Shown in pieces: positions 4,723-19,371 of a DNA stretch of 20,000 nucleotides (positions are counted from its first letter, which is position 1; each line of letters opens with the position of its first letter). The translations under genes and the position numbers were made by a program. The stretch lies in IMG/VR virus record IMGVR_UViG_3300046058_000006; one strand, given 5' to 3'. The stretch comes from an uncultured virus (IMG/VR IMGVR_UViG_3300046058_000006). Lineage: Duplodnaviria > Heunggongvirae > Uroviricota > Caudoviricetes. The notes under the pieces were generated by a model. It did not search any database. It was not told the DNA's origin and was given only the letters and a program-made list of their open reading frames with translations.

Positions 4723-4747
4723 AAGCCGGGCGCTTGTCGCCCGGCTT
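4723..4747. terminator. Perfect hairpin at the stop codon of the 4746 gene
   Basis: AAGCCGGGCG-CTTGT-CGCCCGGCTT, followed on the minus strand by a TTTTT tract. Confidence 0.45.
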
Positions 4748-5174
4748 ACATTAGTCGTTTCGCCGATCGGAACCACTTACGGAACGCGCGGCTTTCGTTT
4801 TCGTAGTGTTTACGCCCGCTACACAACCGGGAAATCACGGCCAGCGAAACGCCGCCGCGCGGTCCTAAGATCAAGTGGGCGCTGTCAGACCCTAATTCGC
4901 CTTCATTATGCCATTTCGTTTCGGATCGCACGAACAGGCTAAGGCGGTCGCCGTTACGCCCGTCTAAGGGGTCTAAGTCGATTTCAAACTGTAGCCGGGT
5001 CGGTTTTTCGGGCGTGTTCCGGCGATCTTCAGCGCGCCGAACAGCGGCGACGGCAGAACGAACGCGCCGGCGCTGTGTAGGCGTCGCGTCAGCGGCTTCT
5101 AACGCGCCGCGAATGTGGTCGGGTAGCTGTTCTTCGCGCATTTCTTCGGCCAGGGGCGCGCTTCGTTGTGCCAT
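4746..5174 (-). CDS. Hypothetical protein (Arg-rich, possibly nucleic-acid binding)
   Basis: Start reassigned to MAQRS (5174); GAAAGAC-TTATGT BRE/TATA about 30 nt upstream. Divergent from the nuclease gene. Confidence 0.6.
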   Translation of the reverse strand: MAQRSAPLAEEMREEQLPDHIRGALEAADATPTQRRRVRSAVAAVRRAEDRRNTPEKPTRLQFEIDLDPLDGRNGDRLSLFVRSETKWHNEGELGSDSAHLILGPRGGVSLAVISRLCSGRKHYENESRAFRKWFRSAKRLM

Positions 5175-5269
5175 TGCATTTAGCACGAACAGCGGTATAC
5201 ACATAAGTCTTTCACATTAGGCCATACACTTACGCAAAGGGTTATGAAGCGGGCAGTGCTACGCCAGGT

Positions 5270-5926
5270 ATGGGACAGCTAACTGATAGCGCCCCTGAAG
5301 AACAGGCAAAGGTGTTCCTGTCCGCATGGCTACAGCGCGAAGGCGCGGCTGTGTTTTGGGAAGAAAACACCGAATGGCCGTTCCCGACCTTCAGCGTGTC
5401 CGGTACAGGCGGACGAAAACCCGACTTGGTTGCTTCGACGCAGGCCGGAAAAACAATCGCGTTAGAAGTGAAAAGCGGCTACAATACAAGCGGGCCGATT
5501 ACCGGGTTGATCCAGGCGTTCGGCTACTGGCGCGACTATTCGACCCGGAAAGCGAACTACAACCTGCCGAACCGCATGGGCGATAATCACAAGATCGACG
5601 TGTTCGCGGTAGCGACGCAGTACGCGAAACAAGGCGCGGCCTTTTGCCCGGATGGGAACCGCGATTCTATCCGCGACGATTATGCGTCAGACGAAAGAAC
5701 TTGGCGAAACACGCCGGATCAAGAGCACAACTGTAGCCTTGTGCTTCGCATGACAGCCGCGCGGCTTATCCGCGACCTATACGGCTACGAAAACCTGCCG
5801 GACGGCGCGCCAGGCTTCGGCCTGTTGCTGTCTGACGCCTTGGACGACCGAAGCGGCGATACAGTGCGCCCATGGGTATGCTACTACGACGAAAGCTTTG
5901 ACAATTGGGAACCTGTGGTAGAATGA
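5270..5926 (+). CDS. PD-(D/E)XK restriction-endonuclease-like protein
   Basis: Motifs E..(PEEQ), KPDLV, ALEVKSG and QAFGY (QxxxY). AAAGGG-TTATGA promoter about 28 nt upstream. Confidence 0.75.
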   Translation: MGQLTDSAPEEQAKVFLSAWLQREGAAVFWEENTEWPFPTFSVSGTGGRKPDLVASTQAGKTIALEVKSGYNTSGPITGLIQAFGYWRDYSTRKANYNLPNRMGDNHKIDVFAVATQYAKQGAAFCPDGNRDSIRDDYASDERTWRNTPDQEHNCSLVLRMTAARLIRDLYGYENLPDGAPGFGLLLSDALDDRSGDTVRPWVCYYDESFDNWEPVVE

Positions 5927-8291: not shown

Positions 8292-9677
8292 CTAAAAGGC
8301 CGGGAAGTCACCGGGGAACGCGCGGAACGGAACCTGGCTTTGGGCGCGCAAGAATCCAAGTTCCGGCTGTGGTACATCCAGGCCTTCAGGGTAGACGACC
8401 ATGCCGATAGCGTCTTGGGAATGACCCGCGTACAGCAGGGCTTGGCTAACGCTTTCGCGCAAGACGCTTTCGGCGTCGTCTTCAGCTTCGATCATTAACA
8501 CGCCCAAGTTAGTGTCAACCACTACGTCCGGTTCGCGGCCGCTTTTCAACCGCGGTTCGATTAGCACCTTATCAGACCCGTACCGTTCTTCGAACGCGCG
8601 CGCGACCTGGTTAATCAGCGCGCGGTCGCTTGGCGGTCGCATATCGCCGGGGGCATCGTCGTCGCCTTCGCCGCCGTCGTCCGGTTCGTCGCCTTCAGGC
8701 GAATCGTCCGGCGATTCGCCAGGGTCGCCGGGTTCGTTTGGCATATCGCCGCGTTCGGGCGCGGCCAGCGCGGTCACACCTAACTGTTCTTCGATGTTTC
8801 CAAGCTTGTCAGCGATCGAAACGCGCTGTGAACCGCTGAAAACGTGTCCGATCAAACTTGGCCGGCCGCTGTCCGGGTTCGTAAGCAACGGCGCGCCACT
8901 ATCGCCGCCTTTGCTTTGTGCGGTCGTTACAAGCACGTCACGGCGTCGGACGTTTTCGTGGGCGTCGCCATAGCTAACGTCAACAGTCGCGTTTGTCGCG
9001 GTCACACGCCCGTCTGTTAGGCCTGTAGTCCGTCCGGTCTTTTGCACGCTGTCGCCGCGCATGACCGACCCGCCAGCTTGCATCGGACCGACGCCGTGCG
9101 GCAGGTACGCCCTTTGGCTTCGGCGTTCGCTTTCGCTTACAGACCGTGCGGCCGCGTCAGCCGGCGATCCATCTTCCAACAGCGAACCGCCCACGTATTC
9201 CCCCACAGTGCCGTCTGAATCACCGTCGATAGGCGACGGCTGTACGATCGGTTCGCCGACTTCAGCGTTTTCAGATCGCCCATAGACGTGCTGGTTAGAC
9301 ACACGTACCACCTGGCCGGCGTCAGCGTTCAAGCCGATTTCAGCGGCACTTGGGTCGGTTACACGCGCCATGAAGCCGGCAGTCGCCGCGCCGCCGCTGG
9401 CGTTCATTTCCGAAACGCCAGGTCGAACGGGCCGGTAGCGCCGTCGCGGGCTTTCAAGCCGGGCGCGCACGTCGTTGCCAAGCGCGCTAACGTCGTTGAC
9501 TTCAACCACGTCGGTATCAGCGTCGATACGTTCGCGCGCCAGTTTGCCCGACTTGATTTCATCTTCAGGTAGCTTTTCTTCGACCAAGACCACTACCTGT
9601 TCATCTTCGGCGCTTACGCCGCGCACACCGTCGTCCGAAAGGATAAATTCGTAATTCCGCGTGCTTCCACAGGACAT
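8292..9677 (-). CDS. Nal1-like trypsin-fold serine protease fused to a C-terminal PD-(D/E)XK-like domain
   Basis: Prodomain VVVLVEEKLP...DTDVVEV; RPVRPGVS; catalytic triad SNQH / ADAA / GGDSGA; VQKTGRTTGLTDG; D/E/P/G linker; then EPDVVV, MIEAED and QALLY. Confidence 0.8.
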   Translation of the reverse strand: MSCGSTRNYEFILSDDGVRGVSAEDEQVVVLVEEKLPEDEIKSGKLARERIDADTDVVEVNDVSALGNDVRARLESPRRRYRPVRPGVSEMNASGGAATAGFMARVTDPSAAEIGLNADAGQVVRVSNQHVYGRSENAEVGEPIVQPSPIDGDSDGTVGEYVGGSLLEDGSPADAAARSVSESERRSQRAYLPHGVGPMQAGGSVMRGDSVQKTGRTTGLTDGRVTATNATVDVSYGDAHENVRRRDVLVTTAQSKGGDSGAPLLTNPDSGRPSLIGHVFSGSQRVSIADKLGNIEEQLGVTALAAPERGDMPNEPGDPGESPDDSPEGDEPDDGGEGDDDAPGDMRPPSDRALINQVARAFEERYGSDKVLIEPRLKSGREPDVVVDTNLGVLMIEAEDDAESVLRESVSQALLYAGHSQDAIGMVVYPEGLDVPQPELGFLRAQSQVPFRAFPGDFPAF

Positions 9678-9712
9678 ATAGTATATACGACGCCCGCTTC
9701 TATAAATTTAGG
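9678..9712 (-). promoter_or_regulatory. Leaderless-type promoter for the protease fusion
   Basis: TTTATA (minus strand, 9701-9706) starts 29 nt before the ATG at 9677. Confidence 0.55.
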
Positions 9713-9885
9713 GCCAAAATCACTGTTGTAGAAATGAACAGCAGTAACAGGCCGCTGAAAAAGCCGGCCTTGAACCATTCGCGGCGATCCAGCGCGGTTA
9801 GTATCCATCGAACCAGTGTCGCGCTGTGAACCAGGATAACGACCATAAGAATGTATGCGGCGATTCGTATTCCCAAGTCGGTCAT
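9700..9885 (-). CDS. Small 2-TM membrane protein (array member 6)
   Basis: Two hydrophobic segments; ATGA-coupled. Confidence 0.75.
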   Translation of the reverse strand: MTDLGIRIAAYILMVVILVHSATLVRWILTALDRREWFKAGFFSGLLLLFISTTVILALNL

Positions 9886-10085
9886 ATCAGCCCTTCCGTC
9901 CGAAGCACTACCAGGATAACTTTACCGGATACATACGAAATTACAAGCGTAGCGCCGATAATCCCGATCCAGGTTTGCTGTTCGGGCGTCGTTCGTTTGA
10001 TAGCTTCGGCTATGGCAACGACTAACAAAACTGTTCCTACCAGGAACGTAAAGCCGATCGCCAAAGCAACCAGTTCTGAAATCAT
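9882..10085 (-). CDS. Small 2-TM membrane protein (array member 5)
   Basis: Two hydrophobic segments, SYVSGK at the end of TM2; ATGA-coupled on both sides. Confidence 0.8.
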   Translation of the reverse strand: MISELVALAIGFTFLVGTVLLVVAIAEAIKRTTPEQQTWIGIIGATLVISYVSGKVILVVLRTEGLI

Positions 10086-10300
10086 ATGTTTACCCCACTG
10101 TCGCGTAGCAGGTGTAGCGTCGCTTTACCCATTACGAACACGAACAGGGTAGCTATGAAACCCGCCCATATACGCCAGGCTTGATCATGCGTCAGACTGT
10201 TTTCTAAGATTGTCGCTAACTGAATCAGCGGCACAAAAGACACAAAGAATAGCTGTAGCACGAACACGCCCATTAGAAGCGCGGCCAGTAGTTCGTTCAT
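10082..10300 (-). CDS. Small 2-TM membrane protein (array member 4)
   Basis: Start reassigned to MNELL (10300), giving an ATGA overlap; VFVMGK at the end of TM2. Confidence 0.8.
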   Translation of the reverse strand: MNELLAALLMGVFVLQLFFVSFVPLIQLATILENSLTHDQAWRIWAGFIATLFVFVMGKATLHLLRDSGVNI

Positions 10301-10512
10301 GTTGCACCTGCCGCTTGTAGTATCGTCGCGCCGGTCATGTAACAGATAACCAGCGCCAGGGTAAGGACAGTTCCCCAAAACGCCTGTCTATCCGACGCCT
10401 TATCATTCAGGTAGCCAACTAACTTCATAAACCCGAAGCCAGCTACAATCAGCCCGAACCATACGACGAAACCAGCGCCTATAGCCGCCGCGCCGAAGGC
10501 AAAGGCGTTCAT
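10297..10512 (-). CDS. Small 2-TM membrane protein (array member 3)
   Basis: Two hydrophobic segments, CYMTGA; ATGA-coupled. Confidence 0.8.
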   Translation of the reverse strand: MNAFAFGAAAIGAGFVVWFGLIVAGFGFMKLVGYLNDKASDRQAFWGTVLTLALVICYMTGATILQAAGAT

Positions 10513-10742
10513 GCGTTTTCAGTCACCCATGCGATAGCGTCAGCGCCTATCGACTGTGCCGACCACAGCAGTACCACGAATACGATCAACCAAAAGAAAT
10601 CTTCGCGGTGATCCGAAAACGTCTGACTGTGTTCATCCAGCAGGTCTACCAGTTCCGCTAACAGTAGCCCGCCCGCACACACTGCGGCCAGCACGCCGAT
10701 GCCAGCGGCCAGGTTCAACAGGGTCGTTACCACGTCGATCAT
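10509..10742 (-). CDS. Small 2-TM membrane protein (array member 2)
   Basis: Two hydrophobic segments, AQSIGA; ATGA-coupled. Confidence 0.8.
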   Translation of the reverse strand: MIDVVTTLLNLAAGIGVLAAVCAGGLLLAELVDLLDEHSQTFSDHREDFFWLIVFVVLLWSAQSIGADAIAWVTENA

Positions 10743-10981
10743 GGCAAAGCCCCCGAAGCGACCGCGTTAGCCAGTTCAAGCGTTAGCTGTCCCATGAACC
10801 AGGCACAAATCAGCCCGAACACAAGCACGCCGAACAGGACGGGATAATCCAGCAGGGTTCTGTATTTCATCGGAACGCGGCTTTCAGCCATGATCAACAG
10901 TTCGCCGCTAATCACACCCAAAGCGACGATTATACCTATGACCAAGACGCCCAAGACGACTGTTAGAAGCGCCTGGATCAT
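10739..10981 (-). CDS. Small 2-TM membrane protein (array member 1)
   Basis: Two hydrophobic segments, AWFMGQ; ATGA-coupled. Confidence 0.8.
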   Translation of the reverse strand: MIQALLTVVLGVLVIGIIVALGVISGELLIMAESRVPMKYRTLLDYPVLFGVLVFGLICAWFMGQLTLELANAVASGALP

Positions 10982-11352
10982 GCTAACACGTCTCCGGGCA
11001 TCACCGGGTCGCTTTCATCGACTGTGCGGCCCTGTTCGGCGTCAAACATTACGTCGCCGTCTACAATCGCGCCGGGGCAACGCACTGCGTCGAACGGGCC
11101 GGCGTTCGCGTATTCTTGAATCGCCGAATGAAGCGCGGTACAGGTGATATACACCCGCGCGCCCTTTTGTGTGACCGCCCTGGTATCGTCGGTCTGTTCG
11201 TCCGTCGGCGACAGGCAGAAAAACCCGGTCTGTGGGTCTTTCAGCAACAGTACGCGGTCGGGGAACGGAAAGGGCATTTCGTGCCAAGCGCGCACAACTG
11301 CCGGCGAAAGCGATACACTGCCTTTCGTATTTGTAGCCGTAACGTATGCCAT
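10978..11352 (-). CDS. Hypothetical protein, possible AbrB/SpoVT-like DNA-binding fold
   Basis: The pattern TNTKGSVSLSPAVVRAW...DRVLLLKD...FCLSP resembles a swapped-hairpin barrel. Own promoter AAAACAG-TTATTA (TTATTA at 11375-11380) about 28 nt upstream. Confidence 0.5.
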   Translation of the reverse strand: MAYVTATNTKGSVSLSPAVVRAWHEMPFPFPDRVLLLKDPQTGFFCLSPTDEQTDDTRAVTQKGARVYITCTALHSAIQEYANAGPFDAVRCPGAIVDGDVMFDAEQGRTVDESDPVMPGDVLA

Positions 11353-11394
11353 ATTTACTATCTGCGTCGAACGGTAATAACTGTTTTGTCTGTG

Positions 11395-13248
11395 CTATTC
11401 GCTATCCAGTTCGTCCGCCAGCAGGCCGGCCGCGTCGCGTTCGTCGTCCGCCAGCGGTTTGCCTTCGGCGGCTTTGCGTAGCAGGTTCGCCGCGAAGCCC
11501 TTTGCATCTTCGTCGCTAACGAAATGGTGTAGAGCTTTTTCAGCGCGTCCTTCGTCGCCGTCAGCCGATTCTTCGCCGCCGTCAGCGGCCAGGTTGTCTA
11601 TTTCTGCGTCGCCGTCCGGCCCGAAGCCGCCGTAATAGTCGTTCATAACGGCGCGTCGTTCGGTGTAGGCGTCGCCAAAGGACATTCCTTCGTCGCGCAC
11701 GTCAACGATTAGCGCGTCGTCGCCGTTCGTGGGACGAAGCGCACGCCCGATAGTCTGGATCACTTCAACCGCCGACTTTCCGCCGTGTGCCAGGATAATC
11801 GCGTTAACATCGGGAATGTCAACGCCTTCTTTCAGCAACGTGGAAACCACTACGTCGATTTCACCGTCAGCGAACGCGGCCAGCTTTTCGTCGCGGTCAA
11901 CCGTATCGGACGTAACGACTTCAGCCGTAACGTCGCTGTCGCGCCCGGCGATCTTTTCAACTATGAAGTGTGCTTGATCGATCCGGTTGACGTTAACGAT
12001 CGTTCGGCGACCGACCTGGCTAAGACCGACTGCCTTTTTCGCTATAGCGTCGTTGCGCGCGTCGCTGTGTTCGATACACCGCTTGTAAGCGTCGTGATAT
12101 TCTTCCGCGCGACCGTTGCGGGTCGGGCCGTCGTGTTCGATCGTTTCGAAGCGCGGACGGGCCAGGTAGCCCTGCCGGATCATGTATTCCGCGCCACGCG
12201 AATAGATCACAGGGCCGATCGCCCCGTTGATCCAGATTTCTTCAGGTTCGTTGCGCCGCCAGGGGGTTGCTGAAAGACCCAAGCGGAACGCGGACGGGAA
12301 CAGTTGACCGACGCGGTGCATCGTATCGGCGACTGAAGTGCGGTGTGCTTCGTCGTAGATCGCCATGCCGTATTCGGCAGGCGATAGCGGCGCGTCGCCG
12401 TCAGCGCCGGACGTGCCTTTGCTAACAAGCGACTGCATGATAGCGACCGTAACTTGGTCGCCTTCGCGCCATTCGCCGTCGCCGATAATGCCGGGTTCGA
12501 CGCCTAACAGGTCGCGGATTTCATCGGCCCACTGGTACAAAAGTTCGCGCGTATGCACGAACACCATGGTCTTGCGCCCGACCTGCCGAATCGCGTGTAG
12601 CGCCGTGACAGTTTTGCCCGTGCCGGTAGGCAGTTCGATCACACCCGTCTGTTCTTCGGCGATCTTGTGGGCGGCTTCGTTCTGGTAGTCACGTAGTTCT
12701 TCTTCAAAGTGCCAGGACACGTCTATCGCGTCGCCTTTAAGACCGGATTCGGGGCCGGCCAGCGTAACGTCGAAACCTTCCGCTTCAAGAATCGCGGCCG
12801 CGCGGTCAACCAGGCCAAGGGGCGCGGTTCCCTGCCGGCGGTCTACGACGTGTTCGACTTCAGGGATTGACGGGTCAAATTCAGCGTCGGGGTTTTCATA
12901 CGCAAAGAAGTTATCCAGCACACCGATCGCCCGACCGCCGTCAATGTGAAACACGTTTTCGGCAGGGTCGCGCCGAAGCGTGACTTCAGGGCCGCTATCG
13001 TCGCCGGCGTTGATATAAAATTCGTCCTGTTGACTGCCGGTAGCGCGCCGAACCTGTTTCAGCGATTCTTCGCTGATTTCAACGGCCCATGCGAATTGAT
13101 CGTCGTCTAATTGATCGTATTCGCGGGGGTAGCAGGGTTCGTAATGAACGACGCCCCATTCGGTGCTTTTTATGTCGCCTTTGTCCGCGCCGATAATCGC
13201 CAGCTTTTCGCCGTATTCCGTGTCAACGGTCGTCGTTTCGTAGCTCAT
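11395..13248 (-). CDS. Superfamily 2 DNA helicase (XPB/Rad25/UvsW-like)
   Basis: LRDYQ, LPTGTGKT, YDEAH, GLSATP, EGVDIP, IQTIGRALR. Start reassigned to MSYET (13248); TTTATACG box at 13297-13304. Confidence 0.92.
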   Translation of the reverse strand: MSYETTTVDTEYGEKLAIIGADKGDIKSTEWGVVHYEPCYPREYDQLDDDQFAWAVEISEESLKQVRRATGSQQDEFYINAGDDSGPEVTLRRDPAENVFHIDGGRAIGVLDNFFAYENPDAEFDPSIPEVEHVVDRRQGTAPLGLVDRAAAILEAEGFDVTLAGPESGLKGDAIDVSWHFEEELRDYQNEAAHKIAEEQTGVIELPTGTGKTVTALHAIRQVGRKTMVFVHTRELLYQWADEIRDLLGVEPGIIGDGEWREGDQVTVAIMQSLVSKGTSGADGDAPLSPAEYGMAIYDEAHRTSVADTMHRVGQLFPSAFRLGLSATPWRRNEPEEIWINGAIGPVIYSRGAEYMIRQGYLARPRFETIEHDGPTRNGRAEEYHDAYKRCIEHSDARNDAIAKKAVGLSQVGRRTIVNVNRIDQAHFIVEKIAGRDSDVTAEVVTSDTVDRDEKLAAFADGEIDVVVSTLLKEGVDIPDVNAIILAHGGKSAVEVIQTIGRALRPTNGDDALIVDVRDEGMSFGDAYTERRAVMNDYYGGFGPDGDAEIDNLAADGGEESADGDEGRAEKALHHFVSDEDAKGFAANLLRKAAEGKPLADDERDAAGLLADELDSE

Positions 13249-13322
13249 GGTTTGTCCGGGGTTCGTCGCCCCGTGATTAACACGAATACCCGGACACGTA
13301 TAAACCCATCGTCTTAGGGTAG

Positions 13323-13565
13323 TCAACCCCAATTCGATTCATTCAGCAAAAACACGAAATAGAAGAACTTACCGACCACATACGGCAGGACGGCTATAAC
13401 GATGGTAAGCGCCGCGCCAGCATGAATCGATACGTGAAACACGTTAGAAATTACCATGGATACGATACCGAAACAGGCCAACAGGATAGCGCCGATAAAC
13501 CAGCACACTACGCCGTCAACCTGTACGCTGTCATCATTCCAAATAAATTCATCTTCTTCGGTCAT
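13323..13565 (-). CDS. Small 2-TM membrane protein
   Basis: Acidic N-terminus and two hydrophobic segments; ATGA overlap with the ERCC4 gene. Confidence 0.7.
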   Translation of the reverse strand: MTEEDEFIWNDDSVQVDGVVCWFIGAILLACFGIVSMVISNVFHVSIHAGAALTIVIAVLPYVVGKFFYFVFLLNESNWG

Positions 13566-14329: not shown

Positions 14330-16972
14330 TTACGCGAACGCCAGCAGTTCGGCCTGATTCGTCGCGTTCGGATTTAGATTAACCTGTTCGATCGCCTTCG
14401 TAAAGTAGTTTTGCCATATGTATGACCGGCTTTCCGGGGTAAAAGAAAAGGTGTCAACGCCCGCGCCAGGCACTTCTTGCGCCGCGCCATAGTCGGTATC
14501 TATTTCACCGTCCTTGTAGGCGCGCCAGGGTAGGGGTTCGTCCCGGTAGACCGGATGGATCACGCTTTCGCGCCCTGTATCGAACTTGATATAAGGCACT
14601 TTGTCACCGCGTCCAAGCTTCGCGCCGTCGATGTACCCGGCTTCGACCGCCGCGTTATACATCTTCGCGGCCCTGGCGTGCGCCGTATGGTTCGAATACG
14701 TATCACAGTTACATTCGTCGCGGTCACACACGCATGACAGCCGTTTTCGAAGCGACGCACGCTTTACCAGGTCGCCGTCGCGGTCGCCGTCTAACACGGC
14801 GTCGCGTTCGTCTAAGATAATCGGCGCGGTCGGTTCATCTTCTAACAGCGCTTCGACCAAGCGCGCTTGTAGGTTTGACGCGCCCTTCAGCGTGTCCGAC
14901 TTTTTGCACTTCAAGCCTACGACCTTGTGTTCGTCCGTCGCCTTTCCATCTTCCCAAACTTTCTTTACTGCATACGACTTTTTCTTGTCGGTCTGAATGA
15001 ACCGCGACGCGACATAATCCACGTCCAATTCTATGAACGATTCATCGCCGTTCATTTTAAACCCGACAAGGTGTTTGATGTGTCGATTCAGGCTGTCTAC
15101 AACAGCTTCCGCCGCGTCAGCCGCAACCTTGGCGCTGTCGTAGTCGTCCTTCAGGCTGATAAAGACGCTATCAGTGTCGCCGCCGATCACTTGGTCTACA
15201 GCGTCTATTTCGTTTTCTACGAACCGCCGGCTTTCGCGGATTAGGTACTGGCCGGTTTCGGTAATGTGTTCGGACATACCAGGGACGTAATAGCGGTGCA
15301 ATGGCGACGCGACCACGCCGAACGACGAATTATACAGGGACTTAATACCCATATACATAGCCGCCGCGACTTTCTTTTCAGGCGTGCCGTTTTCCGCCGC
15401 GTTCCGGCGATCTTTAAATTCTTGCGCCAAATCTTCCAAGTCCGACGTAGCATCGGCCAGGATGCCCCGCTCGTAATCTGGATGCAAGAATCCGCCGCGC
15501 GCGTCGCCGTCCTTTTCAGGGTCGAAGCGGCTGTTAACACCTTCGATAAACGGCTGTTCCGTGTTCGCCCAATAGTCGCCAGGTCCGTCAGCCGTCTTGT
15601 TAACGTCTAACAGCTTCGGTTTCGTTATGATTTCCCGGTCGTCCAAGTAGTCGCCGACTTCTTTTTTCAGACCTTCGTAGCCGTCCGTATCAACCCAAGT
15701 GTTTTCGCCCATGTTTAGCGCCTGAATGATGCTTGGATACATCGAACTGAAGTCAGCGACGAATACCCATTCGTGCGTTCCCGGCGTCGTTTCGAACACG
15801 TAGCCGCCCGGAAATTCGCCAGTGTCCCGGTAGCGCCCGCGATCGGGGAACACGTAGCCCTGTTCGTTCGCGCGCCGTAAGATCACACCGTCAACGGCCT
15901 TTCCGACCGCGACGCGCGGGTAGCCGTTGCTGTCGTAGGTGATCGTAGACATTCGCGTATGCCCCTGTTTGCACACACGCGCGGTCGTTTCGACAAGTAG
16001 GTACTGTTCCGAAATGCGGCGCGTTAAATCCGCGTCCTGTAGGTTGTAGGACTTCAGGCGTTCCGGGTCGTTATTCCACCATTCGCGTAGTTGCTTGTAC
16101 GATTCGCTTTCGTCCATATCCTTCGAATCGCCTAATTCGTGTTCGGCGACCGAATCCAGGCCATAGCTGTCTAATTGGTCGCGCTTGAACGACCGGAACA
16201 GGCCCATGGCGTCGAAATGGATCAAGCCAAATTCCGGCCAGGTAAAGCCCGAAACGCGGTCACTTTCTTCAAGCCGGTTTTTCAGGTACGGCAGATCGAA
16301 CGATTCGCTATTCCACCCGACAAGCACAAAGTAGTTTTCCAACAGACCGCCGTCGGAACGATCGGCCGGGTTCCCTATCAGTTCGGTGTAGATTTCCTGT
16401 TCCGTGCCAGTGATGAAAAATTCGTTGCCTTCGCCGTCAACCGCCGCGAAGGAAAGGATTTGCGCGTCCGCGTCGTCCGGTTCGGGGAACCCATCGGCCG
16501 GGTCTACTTCTATGTCAAAGTATAGCACGTCGCCCGGATCGGGCGTATCCAGTTCAAGCAGGTCCGGGCGATCGATTAAGACGCGCCTGGCATAAGGCAC
16601 GTCAGCCTGGTAGGTTTCCGGCACTATGTCAGCGTCGCTTTGCGGCATATCGGCCAGGTCGTCCCGAAGGTCGTCCAATTCGTTGCGAAAGCTACCGATC
16701 GTTCCGGGCGCTTCGGCTTCTACTTTCACGAAACCGTCCGGCGCATTATCGTAGTCCGGGTTCGTCCAAGCTTCCCACAGTTCGGTCTTAGACGTATCCA
16801 GTTCGCCCCATGGAATGTTATCAAAGTCGCCGACTTCCATGTAGAAGTACGGGTTGAACGGGGCTTTGAACTGTTTTCGGACTTTTTCGCCGTTTTCTTT
16901 CATTAACAGCTCAACGTACAACGGATCGTCCGTATTGTCGAACCCATATTGCAGGTCGTACACGCGGGACAT
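14330..16972 (-). CDS. polB: Family B DNA polymerase with 3'-5' exonuclease
   Basis: ExoI FDIE, ExoII WNSESFD, ExoIII YNLQD; polymerase motifs DFSSMYPS, KSLYNSSFG, GDTDS, KKKSY. Confidence 0.96.
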   Translation of the reverse strand: MSRVYDLQYGFDNTDDPLYVELLMKENGEKVRKQFKAPFNPYFYMEVGDFDNIPWGELDTSKTELWEAWTNPDYDNAPDGFVKVEAEAPGTIGSFRNELDDLRDDLADMPQSDADIVPETYQADVPYARRVLIDRPDLLELDTPDPGDVLYFDIEVDPADGFPEPDDADAQILSFAAVDGEGNEFFITGTEQEIYTELIGNPADRSDGGLLENYFVLVGWNSESFDLPYLKNRLEESDRVSGFTWPEFGLIHFDAMGLFRSFKRDQLDSYGLDSVAEHELGDSKDMDESESYKQLREWWNNDPERLKSYNLQDADLTRRISEQYLLVETTARVCKQGHTRMSTITYDSNGYPRVAVGKAVDGVILRRANEQGYVFPDRGRYRDTGEFPGGYVFETTPGTHEWVFVADFSSMYPSIIQALNMGENTWVDTDGYEGLKKEVGDYLDDREIITKPKLLDVNKTADGPGDYWANTEQPFIEGVNSRFDPEKDGDARGGFLHPDYERGILADATSDLEDLAQEFKDRRNAAENGTPEKKVAAAMYMGIKSLYNSSFGVVASPLHRYYVPGMSEHITETGQYLIRESRRFVENEIDAVDQVIGGDTDSVFISLKDDYDSAKVAADAAEAVVDSLNRHIKHLVGFKMNGDESFIELDVDYVASRFIQTDKKKSYAVKKVWEDGKATDEHKVVGLKCKKSDTLKGASNLQARLVEALLEDEPTAPIILDERDAVLDGDRDGDLVKRASLRKRLSCVCDRDECNCDTYSNHTAHARAAKMYNAAVEAGYIDGAKLGRGDKVPYIKFDTGRESVIHPVYRDEPLPWRAYKDGEIDTDYGAAQEVPGAGVDTFSFTPESRSYIWQNYFTKAIEQVNLNPNATNQAELLAFA

Positions 16973-17029
16973 TACAGCCCGGCGCTTTGCCCCCCAAAGA
17001 CTAAAGCGTTGCGTACCGCATTAGTAGAC

Positions 17030-17362
17030 GTGACTAACGAAACAGCGATCTTGGACGAAGCAAAGCAAATCGTTAACGAACGCGAAAGCACGAACGGGCC
17101 GGCGATCCAAAGCATGACTACGATTCGCCAACTGTGGAATGTCTACCTTGGCGAAGCGTATCCCGACATTACGACGCGCCAAGCGGCGGTCATGCTGGCC
17201 CTGCTGAAAGTCGGCCGGCACACGCATGGGGATAACGGCATAGACGACGCGCGCGACATTGCCGGGTACGCAGAACTGGCCGCGCGGGTCGAAGAAGAAG
17301 GCGATCACACCTGTTGCGACTGCTGTATCAACGACGAAACGGGGCCGGTTAACAAGTTTTAG
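17030..17362 (+). CDS. DUF6378-like phage protein (possible MazG-like fold)
   Basis: ILDEAKQIVNER..G, IRQLWNVYL, MLALLKVGR and DDARDIAGYA match the DUF6378 pattern as I recall it. Start reassigned to the GTG at 17030. Confidence 0.7.
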   Translation: MTNETAILDEAKQIVNERESTNGPAIQSMTTIRQLWNVYLGEAYPDITTRQAAVMLALLKVGRHTHGDNGIDDARDIAGYAELAARVEEEGDHTCCDCCINDETGPVNKF

Positions 17363-18237
17363 TCGTCGTCCCAAACGCTACCGCCGACCTTTTTACATTC
17401 GTCTACGAACGGACAGAACCGCATACAGTTGTCCGGGTCTATGGGGTCGGTCGCCGGAATGGTATCTTCTTGGCGGTTGTTATAGTGCAGGTACGCACGC
17501 TGTACGATTTCAAGCCAAACCTTAGCTTCTTGCGGCACGCGATAGCGCCTTTCATCCAGTTCGTTCCGGGTAATGTAGGTCAATTCACCCGGCGCGTCGA
17601 ACGCCTGCTGATAGGTCGCTAACTGGTATTGATGCTTCGGCCTGAAACCACGCTTGTTAAAGCGATCAAGCCAGTCTAATTTCTTGATCGTTTTGGTTTC
17701 AATTACCCGATCGATTGACCCATCATATTCCGACCATTCGCGGACAGTATCGATCGATGGGTAGCCTTCGATTTCTTCGTTGTAAGACGACTTAGCGTAC
17801 CGCTGTCCGTCCTGGCCGTCGAACACGTAAGCAACATGGCCGCGACCTGGCGCGTCAACGTTGAACACTACCCAATCCGATTCGCCTACGATCCGAAGGT
17901 AGCCATTCGGCGCGTCGTCCGCCGGCAGAAAGATCGTACAACCCACGTCCTGCCGAACGCGCTTGTCGCCAAATTCTTCGCGTAGTGCGTCGCCATACCT
18001 ATCTTCTATGTCATTCCCCAAGGGAAAATATGGCGACGCTTGGGGTTCTTTCCCGTTCTTGTGCGCCCAATATTCTTTCCGCTGGCACTTGGCAACATGG
18101 GACGCATGAACGTCGGTATCAACCGCTTTATGGCGACCTGGATCATGGCGGTCAACGTATTCGGCTTCAAGCCATTTCGGGATTAGTGGATCAAGCCGTC
18201 GAAAAGAGCCAGTATCTTCCGCCGCCGTCAATTCCAT
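17359..18237 (-). CDS. Cas4-like PD-(D/E)XK exonuclease
   Basis: HASHVAKCQRK, GESD, IETKT, QLATY and C-terminal CMRFCPFVDEC (1+3 Cys Fe-S arrangement). Confidence 0.85.
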   Translation of the reverse strand: MELTAAEDTGSFRRLDPLIPKWLEAEYVDRHDPGRHKAVDTDVHASHVAKCQRKEYWAHKNGKEPQASPYFPLGNDIEDRYGDALREEFGDKRVRQDVGCTIFLPADDAPNGYLRIVGESDWVVFNVDAPGRGHVAYVFDGQDGQRYAKSSYNEEIEGYPSIDTVREWSEYDGSIDRVIETKTIKKLDWLDRFNKRGFRPKHQYQLATYQQAFDAPGELTYITRNELDERRYRVPQEAKVWLEIVQRAYLHYNNRQEDTIPATDPIDPDNCMRFCPFVDECKKVGGSVWDDD

Positions 18238-18259: not shown

Positions 18260-18508
18260 TTAAATAAGTGTCGCCAGGTAGATACTGAAAGCGCCGAACA
18301 GCACAGCGACGACCGCCGCGACATACGGCACACCGAACAGCAGTAAGATAGCTTTCGTTATGCTAATCTTTCCCGCCAGTTTATGCCAAGACCACCTGAA
18401 ATCGCGCTTGATGCTAACCAGGCCATGAACATAGCCGGCGAAAACCGTCAACTGCGTCAGTCCATACGCGACCGCGACGCTGGCCCACAGGGTATCAATC
18501 GCTTCCAT
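18260..18508 (-). CDS. Small 2-TM membrane protein
   Basis: Start reassigned to MEAID; TTATTTA box about 29 nt upstream. Probable paralog of the adjacent gene. Confidence 0.7.
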   Translation of the reverse strand: MEAIDTLWASVAVAYGLTQLTVFAGYVHGLVSIKRDFRWSWHKLAGKISITKAILLLFGVPYVAAVVAVLFGAFSIYLATLI

Positions 18509-18530
18509 ACTTTGCACTACAGCCGCGCGG

Positions 18531-18776
18531 CTAAATAATTGACGCAAACCACAGCACGCCTACAACGAACAGCGCCGCAGTAGTCGCGCCCCAAGCCGGC
18601 ATTACAATCGCGTCGAAAGCGATTTGCGGCGTTTTGACCTGTGCGAACGCTTCGCCCCACGTTAGGTTTCGCTTTCGCTTAACGCTAATTACCGACCACG
18701 AACACATGATAAAAACCATTAACAGAACGATCGGGTACGCCAGTGCGAACGCTAACCAAACCAAGCGCCATTCCAT
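18531..18776 (-). CDS. Small 2-TM membrane protein
   Basis: Start reassigned to MEWRL, 29 nt after TATAAA. Basic loop SVKRKRNLTW. Confidence 0.7.
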   Translation of the reverse strand: MEWRLVWLAFALAYPIVLLMVFIMCSWSVISVKRKRNLTWGEAFAQVKTPQIAFDAIVMPAWGATTAALFVVGVLWFASII

Positions 18777-18795
18777 ATTCCGCATACGGCAGGCG

Positions 18796-19188: not shown

Positions 19189-19371
19189 TCAGCCGGTCAA
19201 GCTGGCAATGCCGCTAACGACCGCCATGAACAGCAGGTATGCAACCGTCAACTGAAGCACGGTAGCGGCGGCTGTATAAGAAATCATAAAGCCAGCAGTA
19301 AACCAGGCCGCGACTGCTAAAAGCGCAAAAATAGACATTACTATAACCAAAGCTAACGCGCCGTTATCCAT
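19189..19371 (-). CDS. Small 2-TM membrane protein
   Basis: Almost wholly hydrophobic 60 aa; TTTTTTA box about 28 nt upstream. Confidence 0.7.
   Translation of the reverse strand: MDNGALALVIVMSIFALLAVAAWFTAGFMISYTAAATVLQLTVAYLLFMAVVSGIASLTG

Follow-up and report, generated by a model that had tools for sequence, protein, structure and literature searches.

Seven overlapping genes on the minus strand of an uncultured virus are predicted to form a single leaderless operon, in which a probable DNA-binding regulator (g0) precedes six small proteins with two transmembrane (TM) helices each (m1 to m6). Three of these, m3, m4 and m5, are shown by profile comparison to descend from one ancestor, and both the number of genes and their alleles vary among close relatives. 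A variable, coupled two-TM array of an unnamed protein family appears to be new for a halovirus, and no description of one was found in the main texts of the open-access literature. The locus is of interest for the ways in which tailed haloviruses keep out competitors, disable defences at the membrane and bring about host lysis.

The window, that is the whole 20,000-nucleotide stretch analysed, lies on a virus contig of 66,920 nt. Family searches identified Mu-F head morphogenesis, portal, terminase large and small subunit and SF2 helicase genes as well as an ERCC4 nuclease, a family B polymerase and a Cas4-like protein. The core proteins are acidic (D+E 18-20%), and the source is an uncultured tailed archaeal virus (halovirus). 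The nearest cultured match of the terminase is HGTV-1 (29%) and those of the polymerase are halovirus polymerases (23-26%). The helicase on record has 617 aa; its start is placed at the ATG of position 13248 and not at the TTG further upstream (window 11395-13332). A DUF6378 gene (window 16949-17362, +) is convergent with the Cas4-like nuclease gene (17359-18237, -), which the polymerase gene adjoins.

Organisation and translation signals of the operon

A TATA-like box (TTATTA, 11375..11380, -) is located 28-23 nt upstream of the ATG of g0 (124 aa, 10978..11352, -). On the same strand g0 is followed by m1 (80 aa, 10739..10981), m2 (77 aa, 10509..10742), which has an acidic loop, m3 (71 aa, 10297..10512), m4 (72 aa, 10082..10300), m5 (67 aa, 9882..10085) and m6 (61 aa, 9700..9885), which is without a tail. 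The original prediction had described seven genes joined by ATGA overlaps, and all six junctions (10978, 10739, 10509, 10297, 10082, 9882) conform to this. The six products of 61-80 aa each contain two hydrophobic stretches, and the five hexapeptides that had been singled out for a Gly in TM2 are all present, the Gly being invariant in the alignment of each slot of the array. The loops of m1-m6 comprise 13-20 residues, and the tails, of 0-17 residues, carry no more than 3 charges. A 98-aa ORF starting from a TTG was rejected as a form of m4, which is the 72-aa protein starting from the ATG at 10300.

The -4 overlap is described as the commonest gene spacing in prokaryotes (PMC10666635), and according to the account of Hardycor1 half of the genes of that virus overlap (PMC7911831). 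The overlaps alone are ordinary, unlike a run of six two-TM genes: runs of two-TM small ORFs reach 2 at most in 14 cultured tailed haloviruses, compared with 6 here, and the longest chain of small ORFs with one TM is 3. The starts of m1-m6 are preceded by Shine-Dalgarno (SD)-like pairing with a mean of -6.9 kcal/mol versus -2.4 for array-internal 17-mers, and 0 of 10,000 random sextets of such 17-mers pair as strongly. The g0 gene is without an SD (dG +0.1), which together with the position of the TATA-like box suggests that its transcript is leaderless. Public gene callers begin g0 at Met26 (99 aa) and miss the leaderless start. The combination of -4 overlaps, an intragenic SD motif and a leaderless first gene is presented as the signature of termination-reinitiation in haloarchaea (PMC6728339), and all three elements are found in the array. 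The translational coupling predicted earlier is thus backed by the overlap and SD signature. By analogy with known haloarchaeal biology, translation would start once at g0 and re-initiate along the chain, so that the hairpins would be made together, and g0 may regulate the operon.

The predicted model of g0 consists of two beta-beta-alpha-beta-beta units (AF2 pLDDT 62, one of five models confident). Its best VIA structural match among 48,161 chains is 1n0e (UPF0040; Z 4.3, rmsd 3.1, 85 aligned residues, 6% identity), which we take to be MraZ, and the next matches are B3 domains. Since a Z of 4.3 is below the reliable level of the tool, the MraZ/AbrB-like assignment is plausible and unproven; g0 is a probable DNA-binding regulator of the MraZ/AbrB type. 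No match to g0 was found in Pfam, PHROG or NCBIfam, or by Foldseek at E<=0.001. The AbrB-like leader gene of the original prediction therefore stands weakly, in the tandem, MraZ-like form indicated by the structural match, and finds no counterpart in the Pfam and NCBIfam families. Like the MraZ/AbrB swapped-hairpin regulators g0 has two beta-beta-alpha-beta-beta repeats per chain and is the first gene of its operon, but it precedes a membrane-peptide array and not a cell-division operon.

Relationships among the hairpin proteins

Orthologues of equal length exist for all six slots. A profile built on all six members gave 33 matches, which all sort into the six slots with 63-100% identity; orthologues of m1 are 63-91% and those of m2 71-88% identical. 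Relationships between slots are more restricted. Only two of the 15 pairs beat the block-shuffle null (m3~m5, p 0.004; m4~m5, p 0.012), and comparison of profiles gave 59% for m3~m5, 50% for m4~m5, 4.5% for m2~m5 (0 of 40 nulls), 4% for m3~m4 and no more than 3.5% for any of the remaining 11 pairs. The TM2 Gly is invariant in 20 of 20 m3/m4/m5-type sequences. The tail Gly, one of two invariant glycines, is encoded by the SD of the following gene and was for this reason rejected as independent evidence of homology. As it lies within the last six residues, these were cut off before leave-one-group-out profile tests were run against shuffles and 66 natural two-TM ORFs as controls.

In these tests m3 scored 17-27 bits, with 10 of 10 sequences above the 99th percentile of the shuffles (12.1) and nine above the shuffle maximum. 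For m5 the scores were 13-25 bits (five of five above the percentile of 12.5, four above the maximum) and for m4 7.5-26 bits (six of six above 7.1, three above the maximum), while the natural decoys scored at most 8.2 bits. With a model of m3 and m4, 4 of 11 m2 sequences exceed the 99th percentile, and none does so with a model of m3, m4 and m5. The m1 sequences never pass, and two of four m6 sequences pass the percentile with one model, yet remain below the decoy maximum. The tandem paralog expansion that had been proposed for all six genes accordingly holds for m3-m5, where it is borne out by the profiles and by an extra m3 copy in relatives, is marginal for m2 and does not extend to m1 and m6. 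Likewise, profile-level homology beyond hydrophobic bias is found for m3, m4 and m5, and m1 and m6 fall within the nulls or below the decoy maximum. Both may be unrelated passengers. The core of the family comprises TM1, an amphipathic extension, the motif S/T-x-x-Q, TM2 ending in G and a short tail.

Searched against 1.84 billion representatives, a profile matched 11 proteins, namely 10 family members and a 1150-aa repeat protein (P0064) that was dropped as unrelated. At the sensitivity used the m3-m5 family appears confined to one uncultured virus group. Among Pfam, PHROG and NCBIfam families, exclusion families included, none matches m1-m6 above the cutoff, and no homologue of m1-m6, g0 or the neighbouring protease was found in the 14 cultured tailed halovirus genomes; one of the 14 gave a match of E 0.04 inside a 533-aa frame, which was rejected. 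Cultured phages yielded no relatives by tblastn with the protease or blastn with the array, and m5 gave one tblastn match of E=7. Scans of viral, metagenome and genome collections for the locus found no true relatives, and two matches of 17-18 residues (L001 and L002) were treated as chance. Feature matches in the ESM Atlas remained under 0.9, and its structure matches are generic hairpins. A prediction of an m4-m5 complex scored 0.01 and was counted neither for nor against an interaction. Two names given in the sources were rejected. ATP synthase c/K proteolipids are recognised by an acidic residue in the middle of TM2; the protein named 'ATP synthase subunit c/K' (P0017) has no D/E at this position and there is no ATP-synt_C match among 11 m2 sequences. 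The other rejected name is 'DUF606'.

A second tandem pair of small two-TM proteins, unrelated to the array, is encoded at window 18260-18547 and 18531-18785 (-). These two proteins are mutual paralogs, with 24% identity across 76 aa (E 2e-5; p 0.002 against block shuffles). Three further small hydrophobic ORFs (-) are found at window 13323-13565, 19189-19371 and 1406-1567, and the 20-kb window encodes at least 11 membrane microproteins.

Variation among relatives and the neighbouring protease

Four sequencing runs of 3 studies, carrying the label of a halite or rock metagenome, were aligned and cover most of the region; bins lacking cover were left out of the comparison. The order of genes in relatives rests on equal contig size and on two kinds of aligned metagenome contigs, not on annotated genomes, and proteins were likewise grouped per contig by equal contig size and not by annotated gene order. 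A contig of run X4 joins position 10085 to 10318 with 453 other nucleotides replacing 232. By hand translation, a loose end of run X5 at 10318 completes m3 as in one retrieved homologue (P0015), and then opens, at a further ATGA, with the first residues of m3b (P0063/P0070), a 73-aa protein that is 46-48% identical to m3 and is added after m3 in some relatives. P0070 and a 72-aa protein with 31% identity to m4 (P0068) occur on a 1525-nt contig size common to P0015, P0017 and P0031, and cluster-mates of the two share a contig size of 64,906 nt. The 24-nt end of a 72-aa m3 followed by genes of 73 and 72 codons with -4 overlaps predicts exactly 453 nt. This match together with the shared contig sizes leads to the conclusion that in this relative m3 is joined by a further copy and m4 is present as a strongly diverged allele. 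The comparison of copy number called for earlier thus reveals a variable array of 6 versus at least 7 genes.

The X4 and X5 sequences also depart just after the m5/m6 junction, where they start another hydrophobic ORF (30 nt visible, hand translation). It keeps the m5-type Ala7 and Gly11 and is probably a further paralog. Other contigs of X3 and X4 have the m3-m4 and m5-m6 junctions in the same form as the window. One X4 contig keeps the protease gene with its promoter but differs in the sequence just upstream (window 9719), which amounts to another occupant of the last slot.

The alleles of the slots form mosaics, while the helicase, g0 and the protease stay 81-98% identical. The 64,906-nt contig is 97% identical to the window in the helicase and g0, 91% in m1, 46% in m3b, 31% in m4, 81% in m5 and 95% in the protease. 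The values for a contig of 65,434 nt are 89% (g0), 78% (m2), 66% (m3), 75% (m4), 43% (m5), 81% (protease) and 90% (terS), and those for one of 64,987 nt are 98% (g0), 78% (m2), 68% (m3), 78% (m4), 90% (protease) and 92% (terS). Shorter contigs combine m3 at 63% with m4 at 94% and m5 at 97% (1535 nt), m3 at 48% with m5 at 94% (1967 nt), or m3 at 96% with m5 at 55% (1358 nt). Overall, g0 is 89-98% identical in relatives, alleles of m4 range down to 31% in close relatives and those of m5 from 43 to 97%. Since the slots change independently, the pattern points to allele exchange by recombination, and the fast diversification envisaged in the original prediction is supported by these mosaics. Copies would be added and alleles swapped at the junctions, with each cassette staying in the translation chain. 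Divergence at the DNA level is 11.0% in the array (5 pieces), 6.3% in terS/protease (14), 4.0% in the helicase (9) and 6.6% in mixed pieces (4), figures that describe a biased subset of 32 listed out of 173 pieces from which those below 80% identity were left out. Taken singly, 4 of 6 listed array variants are synonymous, too few to judge selection. A more distant virus (P0036, on a 69,206-nt contig) has a g0 homologue at 62%, recovered without the genes downstream of it, which would tell whether the array predates this clade.

The protease (8292..9677, -; phrog_20754, E 2.6e-26) lies directly upstream of terS and consists of a prodomain, a trypsin-like domain, an acidic Pro-rich linker and a nuclease-like C-terminal domain. 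A TATA-like box (TTTATA, 9701..9706, -) overlaps the m6 stop 29-24 nt upstream of its ATG, so that the protease has its own promoter. H130, D174 and GDSG are invariant, which makes for an intact triad. After the variable acidic linker, D384..E397xE399..Q412xxxY416 is conserved in the C-terminal domain, and we take this PD..ExE..QxxxY pattern to be of the PD-(D/E)xK nuclease type. Foldseek returned no match at E<=0.001 for the poor model (pLDDT 39); the two most probable rows, both weak, are YaeQ and an R2 element protein (0.33 and 0.30; E 0.6-0.8), which presumably are nuclease folds. The architecture (Trypsin/Nal1-like, with an N-terminal prodomain-like fold) persists to 33% identity (P0054). 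The protease is tied to the array by adjacency alone and is probably outside the module. Its separate promoter, the nuclease-like domain and the fact that no export signal was seen in it argue against the earlier suggestion of a partner acting on the S-layer.

A 9-mer, GAAGCGGGC, occurs after the TATA-like boxes of both the protease (window 9692-9700, -) and a 218-aa gene on the opposite strand (window 5270-5926, +), at a near-equal distance from the start, and is possibly a regulatory site shared by the two. The latter gene is located between terL and the portal gene and is divergent from 4746-5204. Its product has a PD..EVK motif, is PD-(D/E)xK nuclease-like and gave no family match.

Possible roles at the host membrane

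With loops of 13-20 residues and tails of under 18, the hairpins would be able to act only within the membrane, and the independent turnover of the slots suggests separate targets. It is tentatively proposed, by analogy, that m1-m6 are hairpins which act singly in the membrane and block rival viruses. In the least certain step, each hairpin would bind a different membrane target via its helices; the set would protect the infected cell against competing viruses in the manner of T4 Imm, and a shifting pool of competitors would keep the population rich in alleles. Bacteriophages are known to have both hypervariable arrays of paralogs and small exclusion proteins of the membrane. T4 Imm is an 83-aa two-TM superinfection exclusion protein, and proteins of its type resemble those of the array in size (about 60-85 aa), in having two TM helices and not much of a soluble part, and in being encoded by a tailed dsDNA virus. 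They differ in that there is no sequence match and that the present family is tandem, variable in copy number and archaeo-viral. The T-even internal-protein locus is a hypervariable array of small, diverged genes in tandem, and near-identical viruses differ in which of these genes they carry; its products are soluble, whereas those described here are integral membrane hairpins encoded in one coupling chain on an archaeal virus contig of about 67 kb. Superinfection exclusion is described for haloarchaeal viruses, where the repressor of SNJ1 brings it about (PMC12426801). Weighing against the exclusion reading are the missing match to exclusion families and the tolerance of membrane proteins to change, as higher divergence alone does not equal positive selection. 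Furthermore, exclusion matters most for viruses that are temperate, which this one may not be.

The same architecture and variability also speak for counter-defence or host take-over, in which the hairpins would intercalate into or plug host membrane proteins and the alleles would track host strains. We rank this reading second and hold it to be rather unlikely; the target would be a pore-forming defence effector, a transporter or a respiratory or ATP-synthase subunit. The hairpins weakly resemble subunit e of the V-ATPase, a hairpin as well and the only PDB sequence match (E 0.66), and Pfam ATP_synt_H is hit below the cutoff by 8 of 20 members (best E 0.001). However, such sub-threshold likeness is typical of hydrophobic hairpins, and the structure matches in the ESM Atlas are unrelated membrane fragments. 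Egress or lysis, with hairpins that make membrane lesions and an adjacent protease that attacks the S-layer, is improbable, although the array is located just upstream of terS/terL, as are the suspected holin genes of phiH1, phiCh1 and ChaoS9 in the published descriptions (PMC6471424, PMC6210493), and the protease triad is intact. Lysis genes and egress of tailed haloviruses are given as uncharacterised in PMC10791045 and PMC4810249. The suspected holins PhiH1_460/465, ChaoS9_400/405, HFTV1 gp33-34, which belong to a proposed lysis transcript (PMC12542753), and HrrHc1_155 of Hardycor1 (PMC7911831) are described as small overlapping TM genes, but they occur singly or in pairs, for the most part have a charged tail at the C-terminus, and form no paralog array. 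Small size and 1-3 TM helices, as in holins, are found in m1-m6, and the adjoining protease is separately promoted. The charged hydrophilic C-terminal tail that is named as the holin hallmark (PMC10791045) is present in HFTV1 gp33, PhiH1_460 and HGTV-1 gp37 and missing from m1-m6. Profiles of the array score at most 5.3 bits against HFTV1 gp33-34, PhiH1_460/465 and HGTV-1 gp34-37; no similarity to the compared phiH1, HFTV1 and HGTV-1 proteins and no Hardycor1 match was found. An essential timer would also not be expected as 6-8 freely swapped paralogs, nor does a protease with its own promoter and a nuclease-like domain favour the lysis system once considered for this locus.

Small overlapping hypothetical genes are described as common in haloviruses (PMC7911831) and the window holds the second, unrelated TM paralog pair at 18260-18785, so that the array might consist of near-neutral accessory genes that arose by local duplication, under relaxed selection on hydrophobic peptides and with routine shuffling by recombination. 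We give this little credence, since length, the pair of helices and the Gly/Gln positions are preserved in all retrieved alleles, including those at 31-48% identity, and the array is kept in 4 of 4 long relative contigs with recovered proteins. An obligate hetero-oligomeric membrane complex of fixed stoichiometry, as in the original prediction, would agree with the unbroken coupling chain and its SD motifs, and short overlaps are described as enriched for subunits of heteromeric complexes (PMC10666635). It is nevertheless very improbable, because the gene number is not constant (6 versus at least 7), and alleles with identities of 31-55% change slot by slot and independently of their neighbours.

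A broader form of the preferred reading, on which we are more guarded, is that the ATGA-plus-SD junctions might be plug-in sites at which new two-helix paralogs are inserted or swapped while expression stays intact, each neutralising a different virus or host membrane defence. If true, this would be the first allele-diversified intramembrane inhibitor family described for a haloarchaeal virus. The variability of the array singles out the host membrane as a place of conflict for the viruses of this population, and the differences in copy number and version are as expected of arms-race genes acting there. As the natural alleles are 31-97% identical and contained in a compact, cloneable unit of 1.3 kb, their specificity is directly mappable.
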